Assembly: GCA_021463465.1 (NCBI GenBank)
Contig: JAJTYH010000002.1
Span: 265,799 to 329,798 of the forward strand
From: a bacterium
GTDB lineage: Bacteria > Patescibacteriota > Dojkabacteria > SC72
Length of the DNA stretch: 64,000 nt
Direction of reading: 5' to 3'
The position numbers were made by a program. Of the stretch, positions 36,001-42,000 are shown piece after piece. Positions within the stretch are counted from its first letter, which is position 1. Each line of letters opens with the position of its first letter.

Positions 36001-39000
36001 GATGTAGATACCGAGCTCATGCACAAGCTAGCTTCACAAGAATTGACCCTGGAATCAGTTCCCGATAATGAAGTAACCGTCTACTTAAGAAGTAATGCTA
36101 ATATGAGTACAGGAGGAACCACAGAAGAAGTATTAGATACCGTCAATAAATACTACAAGGACATCTGCGTTCAAGCTTTAAATGCTTTGGACTTAGAATA
36201 TGCCGGAGTCGACCTTATCACCCCTGATATCACCAAGGAAGCTAAGTGTGCTATTAATGAAGTAAATTTCAATCCAGGTTTGAGACTCCATTACAAGATA
36301 AATAATGGGACACCACAACACGTAGCCCTGCCCGTTATGCAATATATTAAAGAAAAGTATTCAGCTTAATTAATCATTAAATGAACATGCCCATAAAAGT
36401 ATTGCAAGGTTTAAATTTGGAATACCCTGGTTCCACCATAATTATAAGCCTAGAGTCGTCCATATCCCCTAACCTATTGGACAAAATACAAGGTTTTCAC
36501 GGGGTTTTCATGGATGCGTATAAGCTCAAAAGAAATGAACTAACAGTACATACTAAACTTACCCATCTGTGGGTAGAGATTGGAAAAGCCCTACAGAAGA
36601 TGGCTTCTCAAGACTGGAGTGAAGATTATACAGAGAAGTACGTCCTTGAAGTGATAATTAAGAAGCAGATCAATTCTATGTCGACAATTCCAATACTAAT
36701 GGCTGCACAGCAAGAAGGGTTAGAAATCACACAGTACTATGTCAGAGAAGGCATCAATGAAAGTGCAGCAATAAACAGGTACTACGCAATCGGTTGTGGA
36801 CAGGAGTCAAATACTACATGCAGCATTTCCTCAAGCAAAGACGCTTATATCGCCCAGAAGACCCAAAGAGACAAAATCTTGACCAACACGGTAATCCAAC
36901 GACTTGGTATCCCCCTACCCAAATGGGTCGAGATTACAAGTAAGGAAGATATAGATAATAACTGGGAGGATTTCAGTAAACCAATCGTTATCAAGCCTAC
37001 TGGCCTTACAGGTGGTAATGGTGTTACAACCCGCATCAAAACTAAAACTGAAGCATATAAAGCTTTTAAGTTTACACAAGAGATTGTAAACGCAAAGGTA
37101 CGTTCCAGCTGGCAAACCAAGATAATGATGCAAGAGCAAGTCAGTGGTGAAGATTATCGACTTTTAGTTATAAACGGCAAATTTGAGATTGCGACCAAGC
37201 GCATTCCTGCACATGTCATAGGTGATGGAGTTCAGTCAATAGAACAGCTTATCGCTGAAATCAATAAAGACTCAAGGCGCGATGTCACCAACCCGACACA
37301 CACCCTTAAACCAATTCTTGTAGATGAGAGTCTTACAGATTTTCTACAAGAACAGGGTTTGAAATTGGATTACATTCCAAAGCGTAATGAGCAAGTTTTC
37401 GTGAGGAAGGTTGCCAGTATGAGTAAAGGTGGAATTACAGAAGATTTCACAGAAAAGGTTCATCCCCAAATCAAGCACATTGTAGAGGCATTATCAGCTT
37501 CGATCCATGCTTATGTAGTAGGAGTTGATGTATTGTGTAAGGATATTTCTAAACCCCTTACACCACAGAATGGGGCTATTATTGAATGCAATACTATGCC
37601 GGAAGCATACCTTAACTCATTCCCCGTTATAGGACAACAGCACCCGAATATTGGCAAGATTTTCTTAAATGGGCTAATAGGGACTCGGACCAAGCGAATA
37701 GTATACGTCGGGAAAGACTTATCTAAAGCAAAGACTTATTTAAAAACTCGTATTGATTTCGGCAATGAAACTATCGGCATATGTTCCACTGGCACGCTAT
37801 ATACAAATGACTATATAATTAATCAGCCAATTGAACTTCCAGAAGCTTTTGAAGCTTTAAAGCTAAATGCCAAATTAAGTACAATCCTGCACCATTTATC
37901 CGCAGAGGAAGTCGCAAACCATGGCTTAGGATTTGAAAGAATCGATATCGCTATTGTAGACAAAGATATAGTAAAAACCTTGGAAACTCTTGAAGGATAT
38001 AAGAACTTAGGACTAATTTCAGAGATTAAAGCAGTTTGAAATACTTAGTAATAGACAAAAAGCAACGAATTGAAACCTCAGCAGATGCTACATACGCTAT
38101 AACTCGAATGACGGAAGAATTCGAGAAGATGGGAGTTGAATATCTGTTTGCAACTACCGATGATATTGACATAAAGATAGATAAAACTTTACAGATTTCG
38201 GTCCTCGGGCATGACCTAACAAGTTTCACCCACATATTACTCAGAGGACATAGATTACATAAGCCTTGGGAGTATGAAACTAAGAAAATCATTGCTGACT
38301 ATATCGACCAATATAACCATAACAACACAGACAAACCTATTCGCCTGCAGAATATTAACGCATTTAAAACCATCTCTTACTACGACAAGTTGTATATCTA
38401 CAAACTGTGCACAGAAAATGGTATCTCTATTATACCGATACACTACAGGACATCCGGGAACTACAAAGCACAACCATCACTTCACTACCCCTTTATACTC
38501 AAAGATTTCACGGGCGAGAACGATTTGAGAGTGATTGACGGCAAAGAGAAGATTAAAAAGAATGTTTACCTAATAAATAATGAGAATGATTTATCCCAAG
38601 AAAACCTGCAAGGTAAGGACACGACCAAATACTTCTCTCAAGTATTTGTGCCAACTGGTGAAGACATCAGAGTCTTTGTCAGTAAAGGCGAAGCTGTAGG
38701 AGGGTTCAGAAGAAAAGCTACCGAAGGTTTTATGACAGTACTCAAAGGCGAATACTATTCATTGGTCATGGATGAAGAAAAGGCAATCAAGGAATTTAGT
38801 GAAAAAGTAGCACGCGTTTTCAAGGCTGATTTTATAGCTGTAGATGTAATGGCTGATGAAAAAGGCAACCTCATGCTCCTAGAAATCAGCTTAAATCCAG
38901 GATTTAAAGCCTATGAGACCAAATCAGTCGGAGAACATATAAACGTTGCCAAAACGATAATCGATTCTTTCTAAAGACCCGCTTTAACTAAAGCTTTTTC

Positions 39001-42000
39001 CAGAAGTTCCTTTGTTGGAACTATCTGTGCGGAAGGAATCAGGCCTTCATCTACCCACGAAACCTTTTTCAAATCAATCTTACCAGCATATAACTTGGCA
39101 TAAAGTGATTGATCTTTTTCAATAGCCTGGCGTACTCTCCTAAATCCTCTGAAATACGACACATCTTTGCTATAAATTCCAGGTTGATTAGTATCGCCAA
39201 GACCTCTTTTCAATCTGTATGCAACATCAAAAGCGTCCAAGGGTTTAGTAAAACCTCGCAAGACTTCGTAGAGGTTCCTAAAACTAAGTTTCTCGCCTAC
39301 ATATACACCATAAACCATCAATGCACGTTTCATAAGGTTCTGATAATCCAAAACCCCCATCATCTCTTCGTTATACATGGCTAAACCCTCTTCAATATCC
39401 AAGTATGATTTCACATTGGCATTGTATAGCGCTGGTACACCTGATAAAGCTCCATTATGCGATCTCAAGACATGCGTGCCTACCTCATGAACAATACTCT
39501 TTTTGACTAAGAAGGGGGTCTTTTCAATATTCCTATCAAGAAAAATTGTCTTGCCTTTAGTTCCGGTCTTCAGACCATTTTTAGCAATGTTCATAGACTC
39601 TTTTACCCCCCACTCTGTAAGACCCAACTCCGCTAAAACTATTTCTATAGCCTTCTTAATTTGATCAAAATGCAAGTTTTCTTTACTCCCTCTATCCTCT
39701 GCCAATTGGTACTTCTTCACTTTTCGTTTTAAGACAAGACAAGCATTCCTAAAGAGTTTCTCCGTTGGAACCTTGTAATGACGTTTTGACATTACTGTGA
39801 AAGCCTCATTTTGTCCTATGGAATCCATAAGGTCATCCGCATCTTTCTTATCTGAAATTAACTGTATGTAGAATTCAGAGATCCTAGGGTCAACATCAGA
39901 CACTCTCACAAGACTCTTTAGTTCCGAAAATATTTTCTCATTCTGATTTGGTCTTTTAACGTATTTGAATTGCGGACTATAAATGCTGGACGCAAGGAAT
40001 TTAGACTTCTCAGCCTCTAGGTTATCTGGTGTAATAGCCAATGCTGTGGGCAACCTTAGTTCTACTAAAAGCTTACTCACTTCATCTAACAGCATCTCTT
40101 TTTTACTCCTCTTAAACCAGAACATAATAACTGTCTTAAAATAATTCGGACATTTAATTACTTCTCATGGACTTAGCGAAGCTTCTCTGCCCAGACGCAA
40201 TCAACTCTAACGCAATCCCTGTACCTTTTGCAACACAATACATAGGCTCTTCGGCTACATGGGCAGGAACACCTGTAGCCCTTGTTAGTAGCTTATCCAA
40301 GTTTCTTAACATTGAAGTACCTCCACTCATAACCATGCCTCGATCAATGATATCAGCAGCTAGTTCAGGTGGAGTTTTCTCTAAGACCCCTTTAATTGCC
40401 TGGATTATTTTGGATAACGGAAGTTTCAAAGCCTCAGCTACATCATTAGAATTTACTATTAAGGTTTTAGGTAATCCCCCTGCCACATCCCTTCCCTTTA
40501 CACTCATCTCCTTAGGATTTTCTAACTTCATTGCAGAGCCCACCGTTACTTTAATATTCTCAGCAGTCTGTTCTCCTATTAAAATCCCTCGCTTCTTCCT
40601 CATGTATGCGATTATGGCTTCATTTAAAGTATCTCCAGCAATTCGAAGCGAATTGAATTCAACTATCCCATCTAAAGAAATAACTGCAATCTCTGCTGTA
40701 CCACCGCCCAGGTTTACAATCATGTTGCCCGAAGAAGTATTAATAGGTAGACCTGCTCCTAAGGCCGCTAGGACAGGCTCAGGAAGGAGATTTACTTTAC
40801 GTGCACCTGCGCCCATTGCGGCCTTGATTACGGCTCTTTCCTCTACCGAGGTTATTCCAGCAGGTACGCTTATCATTACCTCTGGTTTGATAATCTTGCT
40901 TACTCCTAGAGTCTTGTTAAAAAAATATGTAAGTAAGGCTTGAGTGACCCTGGAGTCCGCAATTACTCCATTACGAAGAGGTCGTTTGGCTACAATATTG
41001 TCCGGAGTCTTTCCAATCATCTCCTTAGCCTCCTGGCCAACAGCAATGACGGTAAATGTATTGGTATCAATTGCTACAACAGTAGGTTCAACCAAAACAA
41101 CCCCCTCGCCTTCAATGAAGACAATCGAGTTGGCCGTACCTAAATCAATTCCTACTTTTTTAGAAAGAGAGAACATTATGCTAGATTATATGATAATTGG
41201 GCCATATAACCAACCTTTACTCCTCAGGAATAAGTTACCAAGTCTTTACTTAAATTAAATATGGACTGATCAAATTCAGCTCCTGGCGGAAGAAAGGCAA
41301 TAACCCCTGAACTCGAATTTTTAAAAGCTTTTTCTGACATCTTTCTTGCATGAAAAAATGCTTCACCCATATCGTACTTTCGACAAAGTTCTGCAAAGTC
41401 TTTTGAGCGATAGTAGTCACTTCTTAAATTATCCTCAACATTCCTCTCATGTTCATCATCAACAGCTCTCTTATACGTGCTATTTTTTATCCCAAATGAA
41501 TTATATTCCATTTCAGTTACCTCTCTTGTTATCTGTCTAAAGTCTTGACTTTGACTAGGTATACCGAAGTACTCTAGAGAACTTATCACTTGTATTCCAT
41601 TTGAAACCTTTTTCAGTTCGCGTTCAAGGTAATCTCTAAGTTCAAAAACTTTGTCGTGATTAGACTTTGTATCCATTCTCTTTGGCCTCAAAAGCTCATG
41701 ATCCATTATAGGACAGATTATATTAATTGGAATTCCTATGAGTTCTAAAGTGAGTGGCAACGTAAGTTCTTCCAAAAGTACAGCTAAATAATCGTCAATT
41801 CTCTTAACCTTAATTGTTTTATCTTTCTGCACGTACTCAAAGTTTTGTTCAGCCCCAATTACCTGCTGATCGCCATCCCTATCGTAATAGTACCTTAAGC
41901 ACATAGGAGAATAGCTGTCTATGGGCTTTCCCGTCAAAACAGCTAGATATATGTAACCTTTTACCAATTTATACTTTTCTGGAGAGATTTTGTGAAAGTA

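Follow-up and report, generated by a model that had tools for sequence, protein, structure and literature searches.

A 64,000-nucleotide (nt) stretch of a Dojkabacteria genome (assembly GCA_021463465.1, contig JAJTYH010000002.1, positions 265,799 to 329,798 of the forward strand; hereafter the window) carries a compact, conserved seven-gene locus in a minimal-genome lineage of the candidate phyla radiation (CPR). The locus encodes a zinc metallopeptidase of the MATCAP family, four ATP-grasp ligases, a seven-transmembrane (7TM) protein and MreB2, a second MreB. From homology and from analogy with characterised bacterial systems, we consider it reasonably probable that the locus represents an enlarged add-and-trim system of the Rlo and RimK/RimB type, in which the peptidase works with the adjoining ligases.

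The peptidase belongs to the MATCAP family

The window peptidase is a genuine MATCAP-family member, as its sequence, motifs and fold all show. It matched the Pfam profile PF08014 (MATCAP, formerly DUF1704) with an E-value of 2.5e-26 and 92.9 bits (cutoff 27) over profile positions 9-330 of 365. A first-pass annotation of the window, made from the sequence alone, had placed the 384-aa protein in the DUF1704 'QEGLA' family on the strength of a HEVGTH (HExxxH) motif followed by EEGLAMYNE. Both motifs were located, at residues 213-218 and 245-253, and the family assignment holds on the Pfam profile, the fold and the motifs. The QEGLA label does not: the motif reads EEGLA (245-249), and the NCBIfam QEGLA model TIGR02421 was matched with an E-value of 6e-31 at 108 bits, below its equivalog cutoff of 338.65, so the protein is not an equivalog.

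Using a profile built from 13 orthologs, we retrieved human MATCAP (KIAA0895L; PDB 7z5g and 7z6s) with an E-value of 3.9e-23, the HEVGTH and EEGLA motifs of the window protein aligning with human HEIGTH and EEGLA. H213, E214, H218, E245, E246, G247 and A249 are invariant in the alignment of the 13 sequences, and EEGLA is kept in 85 of 86 peptidase orthologs. As judged from its residues, the metal-binding site is intact. Four of the 86 orthologs carry HExxH (for instance HELTH or HEITH) in place of HExxxH at this site, either as real variation or through assembly error.

The AlphaFold2 model of the peptidase (mean predicted local distance difference test, pLDDT, 91; predicted template-modelling score, pTM, 0.88) returned human MATCAP as its top five matches in a Foldseek search of the PDB (7z5g and 7z6s, best E-value 9e-11), and the next-best fold followed at 1e-3. 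The superposition on MATCAP that the annotation had called for was thus obtained, with template-modelling (TM) scores of 0.60 (query-normalised) and 0.69 (target) and a root-mean-square deviation of 5.5 Å. It was only in 2022 that human MATCAP became known as a tubulin detyrosinase. For the window protein, carboxypeptidase activity, that is removal of residues from a C-terminus, is predicted. The peptidase is basic, with a median isoelectric point (pI) of 9.5 among orthologs, which fits an acidic substrate.

The ligases and the 7TM protein resemble Rlo, RimK and cyanophycin synthetase components

By homology, the four ATP-grasp ligases comprise one of RloC type, two of the cyanophycin-synthetase-G-domain type and one of RimK type. 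Their Pfam matches were to ATPgrasp_ST, RimK, GARS_A, GSH-S_ATP and related families, and their NCBIfam matches to cyanophycin synthetase; the TTL family was absent from the Pfam matches (E <= 0.01) of all four. The RloC-type ligase scored well above the cutoff of PF14397 (E 5.7e-67, 226 bits) and slightly under the cutoff of 314 for TIGR02291 (E 1.5e-83, 280 bits). Its C-terminal domain gave a weak match to PF05618 (E 0.0037, residues 418-493), and a profile of that domain aligned collinearly with PDB 9g59 and 9g58 (E 1.5e-3 and 2.7e-3). These two entries, deposited as 'putative ATP-dependent zinc protease domain' proteins, we take to be Pseudomonas RloA-type structures. The retropepsin motif D-T-G is found in 52 of 54 orthologs and reads D-T-S in the window and in its closest relative, L004.

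Of the two cyanophycin-synthetase-like ligases, the 323-aa protein matched TIGR02068 over CphA residues 165-470 (E 3e-67) and CphA1 in the PDB (7lgn, E 1e-37), and the 552-aa protein matched NF010623 (E 1.9e-70) and CphA1 7lg5 (E 5e-44), aligning to CphA residues 204-579. Both matches cover the G-domain region only, and their scores of 227-238 bits, against cutoffs of 850 and 877, fall short of those of a cyanophycin synthetase. The 312-aa ligase matched PF08443 (E 4.7e-11), TIGR00768 below its cutoff (E 2.4e-13) and, weakly, PDB 5k2m, a RimK-related (LysX-type) lysine biosynthesis protein. The 217-aa 7TM protein aligned to the C-terminal 7TM part of the NCBIfam RloB model alone (positions 313-505; 67 bits, cutoff 900), and so resembles RloB in its 7TM part only. 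The 7TM and RloC-type genes overlap in all 51 ortholog loci in which both were found.

Layout of the locus

The four ATP-grasp genes and the 7TM gene occupy the strand opposite to the peptidase gene and converge on it (Table 1), the 3' ends of the RimK-family and peptidase genes overlapping by 4 nt (38971-38974). ATP-grasp genes adjoining the peptidase had been noted before; four are indeed present, in this convergent placement. The mreB2 gene was likewise described correctly as complete and as lying 28 nt from the peptidase gene on a common strand, though it is the upstream (5') gene in the direction of transcription and not the downstream one. A TATAAT-like box stands immediately before the MreB2 ATG. 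No terminator-like site was found between mreB2 and the peptidase gene; promoter and terminator scans performed no better than on shuffled sequence. In Dojkabacteria the two genes are probably co-transcribed. Translation of the peptidase may alternatively begin at a second ATG at 40095, following GAGGAG, to give a protein of 374 aa. Rfam models run over 30-47 kb of the window detected two tRNAs and nothing else.

Table 1 Features of the window, with positions counted from its first nucleotide
Feature	Position	Strand	Matches and remarks
7TM membrane protein, RloB-like, without the inactive transglutaminase domain	33298-33951	+	PF14402 7TM_transglut, E 5e-21
RloC-type ATP-grasp ligase (residues ~11-306) with C-terminal RloA/RimB-like retropepsin domain (~365-493) in one protein	33920-35401	+	
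Cyanophycin synthetase G-domain homolog, ATP-grasp ligase, 323 aa	35398-36369	+	TIGR02068; PDB CphA1 7lgn
Second cyanophycin-synthetase-like ATP-grasp ligase, with N- and C-terminal extensions, 552 aa	36381-38039	+	NF010623; PDB 7lg5
RimK-family ATP-grasp ligase, 312 aa	38036-38974	+	PF08443; TIGR00768
MATCAP/DUF1704-family HExxxH zinc metallopeptidase, catalytic domain alone, predicted carboxypeptidase, 384 aa	38971-40125	-	PF08014
MreB2, complete basic MreB paralog, strongly conserved	40154-41176	-	PF06723; NF010539; TIGR00904
MreB1	24919-25974	-	followed by MreC and by a PBP2-type transpeptidase
Topoisomerase I	18309-20405		acidic tail, KEDSEE
Open reading frame at expected rodA position, 368 aa	20499-21605	-	
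Open reading frame at expected mreD position, 156 aa	23646-24116	-	
Rmt-like 16S rRNA (guanine1405-N7) methyltransferase	32407-33186	-	NF000466, E 1e-57, 195 bits (cutoff 250)
Two open reading frames, 286 and 172 aa	41224-42580	-	no family match
tRNA	42607-42678	-	
TrpRS, 501 aa	42777-44282	-	N-terminal YbaK-type domain, PF04073, E 6e-13
trpS leader hairpin	44312-44358	-	20 pairs, then a T-run

Ligases and MATCAP peptidases are coupled in other lineages

An exhaustive profile search returned 1562 cluster representatives of the MATCAP family. Among the best 150 of these, 11 of the 16 long forms (>420 aa) carry an RloC-type ATP-grasp domain (PF14397) N-terminal to MATCAP. We also scanned metagenomes with distant MATCAP family members as seeds, which yielded 72 non-Dojkabacteria loci. 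In 12 metagenome loci (L096, L099, L101, L102, L113, L115, L117, L120, L121, L122, L138 and L155), a single open reading frame (ORF) of ~780 aa has the RloC-type ligase as its best profile and a MATCAP-type match in its 3' part. RloC-MATCAP fusions were also recorded in proteins P0143, P0174, P0181, P0213, P0251, P0261 and P0263, among others. Eleven of the 12 loci have an RloB-like 7TM gene immediately 5' of the ORF and in the same orientation; the sequence of the remaining one, L155, begins only 169 nt before the ORF. The RloB-like protein of L101, the sole one scanned, has a PKD domain and a 7TM region. This combination of an RloB-like 7TM gene with an RloC-MATCAP fusion puts MATCAP in the RloA peptidase slot of an rlo-type operon. 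In most fusion loci, genes for a DUF6938 protein and an EamA transporter come after the fusion ORF.

Gene neighbourhoods point to the same coupling. Proteobacterial QEGLA proteins (617-663 aa) are fused to or preceded by an N-formylglutamate-amidohydrolase (FGase)-like domain, the gene order in Shinella being FGase, MATCAP and a GshB-like ATP-grasp gene, and the plasmid or chromid loci that we inspected have FGase and GshB-like neighbours and no MreB. In Photobacterium, a 'glutathione synthase GshB' gene and a QEGLA gene bear consecutive tags (A0J47_RS17020 and RS17025) and rise 38-fold and 28-fold at low salinity (PMC10308900). MATCAP of the closest outgroup locus, L143, has a CphA-like gene on one side and a series of RimK-like, CphA-like, RloC-like and 7TM genes on the other; the flanking genes differ from those of the Dojkabacteria loci and an ATP-grasp cluster still surrounds MATCAP. 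A RimK-like gene abuts MATCAP in three further loci. On these domain architectures and gene orders, the ligase-MATCAP pairing is real and old, recurring as fusions and as neighbourhoods in unrelated lineages. The annotation had read a juxtaposition of ATP-grasp writers, a MATCAP-like eraser and a filament gene as possibly meaningful; fusions and neighbourhoods bear this out for the ligase-peptidase coupling and not for the filament protein.

The locus is conserved across Dojkabacteria

All 80 species-level loci found in a GTDB search belong to Dojkabacteria. Their common order is PEGA-domain protein, (trpS), mreB2 and MATCAP, then on the opposite strand RimK, CphA, CphA, RloC and 7TM, followed by rplL and rplJ; the PEGA-domain membrane protein is a conserved divergent neighbour. 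In a protein homology search with the peptidase, the best 120 matches were all close Dojkabacteria-type orthologs, and the named best matches of both peptidase and MreB2 came mostly from Candidatus Dojkabacteria or candidate division WS6, with a few from Nomurabacteria and Microgenomates. Synteny extends over the whole region and includes the ribosomal-protein and tRNA-synthetase housekeeping genes rplJL and trpS. Because such region-wide synteny within a phylum is uninformative on function, we compared the stability of individual junctions and sought outgroups.

The junctions inside the ligase run are operon-tight in the 80 loci. Wherever a Dojkabacteria locus includes upstream DNA, mreB2 directly precedes MATCAP on the same strand, with a gap of <=150 nt in 72 of 75 loci, which puts this junction on a par in stability with those inside the ligase operon; the MATCAP-RimK junction is less stable (<=150 nt in 55/70). 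Wherever the MreB2 stop could be located, 0-71 nt separate it from the MATCAP start in all but three loci, and look-ups anchored on MreB2 showed the identical arrangement in three cases out of three. Outside Dojkabacteria, no MreB was found within 8 kb of MATCAP in L143, the gene upstream of MATCAP in L092, the other of the two nearest outgroup loci, does not encode an MreB, and none of the flanks of the 72 non-Dojkabacteria metagenome loci (0/72) or of the three proteobacterial loci inspected (0/3) contained an MreB. The linkage of the two genes, which the annotation suggested looking for in related genomes, is therefore borne out in Dojkabacteria and fails in the outgroups.

In three lineages (four loci), a gene for a Wzy_C/O-antigen-ligase-like membrane protein of 411-497 aa stands between mreB2 and MATCAP on the same strand (L069, 8720-9955; L071, 8320-9663; L087, 6391-7884; and likewise L088). 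A neighbour-joining tree places these lineages, L069, L071 and L087/L088, outside the large crown clade. No homolog of the gene was found in the window. With the Wzy_C gene splitting the pair in deep lineages, the present adjacency of mreB2 and MATCAP may follow the loss of an intervening envelope gene. A separate feature concerns L028, where the region 3' of MATCAP (11206-19446) encodes a 7TM histidine kinase, a YcaO cyclodehydratase, a nitroreductase and an ABC ATPase, resembling a cluster for ribosomally synthesised and post-translationally modified peptides (RiPPs).

MreB2 is a basic paralog with an ordinary C-terminal tail

MreB2 matched PF06723 (E 1e-128, 429 bits, cutoff 27), NF010539 (436.6 bits, cutoff 293) and TIGR00904 (429 bits, cutoff 365.75), and the nucleotide-binding motifs DLGTAN, GGGT and SGGT are all there. 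In its AlphaFold2 model (pLDDT 81), strands alternate with helices in a topology that agrees with the actin/MreB fold, and its orthologs are 64-88% identical. That it is a second MreB beside a canonical one, as the annotation had it, is confirmed by 47% identity to MreB1 and by the MreC and PBP2 neighbours of the latter. MreB2 is basic (pI 9.16; ortholog median 9.1, and >8 in 67 of 71 orthologs in L001-L091), compared with a pI of 4.79 for MreB1 of the same genome.

A lack of structure is predicted for the C-terminal ~13 residues of MreB2 (pLDDT 44), which would therefore be accessible. Short and of ordinary length, this tail carries a semi-conserved G-E-R-x-F-x-F-N motif and has a net positive charge in 68 of 73 orthologs; the final position is occupied by R, T, N, S, W, Y or G, depending on the ortholog. 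Alpha-tubulin and ribosomal protein S6 end in conserved acidic C-termini, which the MreB2 tail does not resemble. A literature search on MreB in Dojkabacteria and on glutamylation of MreB found nothing relevant. We also considered topoisomerase I as a RimK-type acceptor, its gene being the only one in the window that encodes an acidic tail, and rejected it on account of the protein's identity.

Proposed function and alternatives

As we picture it, a membrane-associated system would extend a free carboxyl end with amino acids and then trim the extension. The four ATP-grasp ligases probably dock on the 7TM RloB-like protein and would lengthen an acceptor at its carboxyl end with amino acids that are most likely acidic; either the C-terminus of a protein or a free peptide that grows could serve as this acceptor. 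Trimming would fall to two enzymes, the retropepsin-like domain on the RloC-type ligase and the MATCAP-family zinc peptidase. Published work supports the logic of adding and trimming: glutamates that RimK has put on S6 are taken off by RimB (PMC12239564, PMC11957791), polyglutamate is a substrate of RloA in vitro, and deletion of rloB or rloC rescues a triple rloA mutant from its defects (PMC12239564). The S6 gene rpsF was not noticed in the window, where no search aimed at it was made.

Several observations weigh against the add-and-trim reading. The peptidase and ligase genes lie on opposite strands and thus do not form one transcript. Most of the non-Dojkabacteria MATCAP genes sampled are solitary among housekeeping genes (RNase HII, RsmB/F, Dus or M48-peptidase genes), with no ATP-grasp gene detected nearby, so coupling to ligases is not universal in the family. 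Two Dojkabacteria loci, L089 and L028, keep the mreB2-MATCAP pair and have no ATP-grasp gene in the 8 kb downstream. Finally, with DTS instead of DTG, the retropepsin domain may be impaired in the window and in L004.

The solitary homologs, together with the general conservation of Dojkabacteria gene order, housekeeping genes included, would suit a coincidence, in which a stand-alone housekeeping peptidase owes its place between mreB2 and the ligase operon to inherited gene order. We regard this as unlikely in view of the independent ATP-grasp-MATCAP fusions and neighbourhoods in several unrelated lineages and of the ATP-grasp cluster that surrounds MATCAP in L143 among other flanking genes. 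A different possibility, put forward as speculation in the first-pass annotation, which also allowed for another protein as substrate, is that MreB2 itself is modified, the ligases adding C-terminal residues and the MATCAP-like peptidase removing them in a bacterial counterpart of the tubulin tyrosination/glutamylation cycle. The pair is spaced as tightly as true operon junctions and more tightly than MATCAP and RimK, all three MreB2-anchored look-ups agree, the pair survives in L089 and L028 without adjacent ligase genes, and MreB2 is an unusual basic paralog with a predicted accessible tail. However, the adjacency amounts to one evolutionary event in one lineage, where housekeeping genes are syntenic too; it is missing from L143, L092, the 72 metagenome loci and the three proteobacterial loci; and the Wzy_C gene splits the pair in three deep-branching Dojkabacteria lineages. 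The tail is ordinary in length, mostly positive and variable at its last residue, the peptidase is basic as well, and none of the ligases is of TTL type. On this balance the proposal of MreB2 as substrate is not supported, and a modification cycle of this kind appears quite improbable; an action of the peptidase, either by itself or together with the ATP-grasp ligases, on the flexible tail of the co-transcribed basic MreB2 we hold to be very unlikely.

MreB2 might also be linked to the system non-covalently and without being modified: its filaments could serve the membrane-bound 7TM/ATP-grasp machinery as a scaffold or set its position, or filaments and machinery could both build the envelope, the operon reflecting a common role in morphogenesis. 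The cell-shape, osmotic and beta-lactam phenotypes of Pseudomonas rlo mutants (PMC12239564) are in keeping with such a link, as are the Wzy_C gene between mreB2 and MATCAP in the three deep lineages, the PEGA-domain membrane protein as a conserved divergent neighbour, and the basic character of MreB2, which could bind an acidic polymer or the membrane. The basis here is contextual, and the MreB linkage is absent outside Dojkabacteria; as an explanation of the locus this is unlikely, and about equally plausible as MreB2 being the substrate. Returning to the add-and-trim system that we favour, MreB2 is then a neighbour of uncertain relevance, its likeliest tie being a common cell-envelope or morphogenesis theme and not modification.

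Other features of the window

The Rmt-like methyltransferase gene, of the aminoglycoside-resistance type, is inserted between the 7TM gene and rplL, and is found there only in the window and in the near relative L084. Between trpS and mreB2 lie the 286- and 172-aa ORFs, adjoined by a tRNA; they are absent from the 80 GTDB loci, have weak homologs (29-33%) in L090 only, and are probably a lineage-specific insertion. The window TrpRS has an N-terminal aminoacyl-tRNA editing domain of YbaK type, whereas three further Dojkabacteria genomes that we checked encode a TrpRS of 334 aa lacking this domain. The hairpin and T-run in the trpS leader are terminator- or attenuator-like, and Rfam gave no match to the hairpin at the gathering threshold, for example to a T-box. 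Beside mreB1, mreC and PBP2, the ORFs at the expected rodA and mreD positions gave no Pfam match at E <= 0.01.

Significance

The recurrent fusion and linkage of MATCAP-type peptidases with RloC- and RimK-type ATP-grasp ligases in bacteria makes the pairing of a ligase with a MATCAP-type trimmer a prokaryotic one, which probably predates its use on tubulin. It also suggests, in concrete biochemical terms, how the poorly understood Rlo systems might work; in Pseudomonas these systems are important for cell shape, osmotic tolerance and antibiotic resistance. Our literature search on the function of bacterial MATCAP relatives yielded only database names and one transcriptome table. A 2009 study by Iyer et al. 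is reported to have surveyed ATP-grasp amidoligases with their gene neighbourhoods and may already describe a DUF1704 association. The link to MreB2 would be striking if real and rests on adjacency in one lineage. If it were true, action on the MreB2 tail would tune polymerisation, membrane binding or partner binding of MreB2, and would constitute a first 'cytoskeleton code' for a bacterial actin homolog; the partnership between a MATCAP-type eraser and a filament would then have arisen, or arisen convergently, in prokaryotes.

Comparison with known systems

The components are of kinds already known, namely the RimK/RimB and RloABC ligase-peptidase systems and the DUF1704/QEGLA family, and the locus is best read as an enlarged variant of these. 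It resembles RloABC of Pseudomonas aeruginosa (PMC12239564) in that an RloB-like 7TM protein is followed by an ATP-grasp ligase that is probably of RloC type (PF14397/TIGR02291) and by a putative retropepsin-like domain of the RloA/RimB family, and it would share the genetic logic in which a ligase product is countered by a peptidase. It differs in that the window 7TM protein has no periplasmic inactive transglutaminase domain and in that the retropepsin domain forms part of the ligase protein and, lacking a signal peptide, is cytoplasmic, whereas RloA, whose active site is of the D-T/S-G kind, is secreted. The window further adds three ATP-grasp ligases and the MATCAP-family metallopeptidase, its host belongs to the Patescibacteria and is not a gammaproteobacterium, and its NCBIfam scores lie under the RloB and RloC cutoffs. 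In the RimK/RimB system (with RimA) acting on S6 (PMC4741518, PMC11957791), poly-alpha-glutamate synthesis or elongation of a protein C-terminus is the work of an ATP-grasp alpha-L-glutamate ligase, whose product is trimmed by a dedicated peptidase. The window likewise has a RimK-family ligase, and its second trimmer is a zinc metallopeptidase, in contrast to the aspartic enzyme on the RimB side.

Two of the window ligases are clearly homologous to the G domain of CphA1, which adds aspartate to the C-terminal carboxylate of the growing chain. Unlike CphA1, they have no complete Mur-ligase-like M domain, the alignment of the 552-aa protein stopping at residue ~579 of 879 (PDB 7lg5), and there is little or no match N-terminal to the G domain, where alignments start at ~118 (profile) or ~200 (PDB). 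At 323 and 552 aa, compared with ~880 aa, the window proteins are far shorter and cannot make cyanophycin as such.

The window peptidase has its Pfam family, fold, HExxxH motif and EEGLA glutamate in common with the human enzymes MATCAP/TMCP1 and TMCP2 (KIAA0895L and KIAA0895; 7z5g, 7z6s). It is only ~18% identical to human MATCAP in the fold alignment and consists of the catalytic domain alone, without the flanking regions that mediate microtubule binding in the human enzyme. TMCP1 and TMCP2 trim C-terminal residues of tubulin tails and also deglutamylate them (PMC10499314); no tubulin is expected in the window organism, where the partners are RimK-, CphA- and RloC-type ligases and not TTL/TTLL enzymes. 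Closer in setting are the proteobacterial QEGLA proteins, whose homologous MATCAP domain is likewise linked to an ATP-grasp (GshB-like) gene. They are proteins of 617-663 aa with an N-terminal FGase-like or other extension and a QEGLA motif, whereas the window protein has 384 aa and EEGLA.

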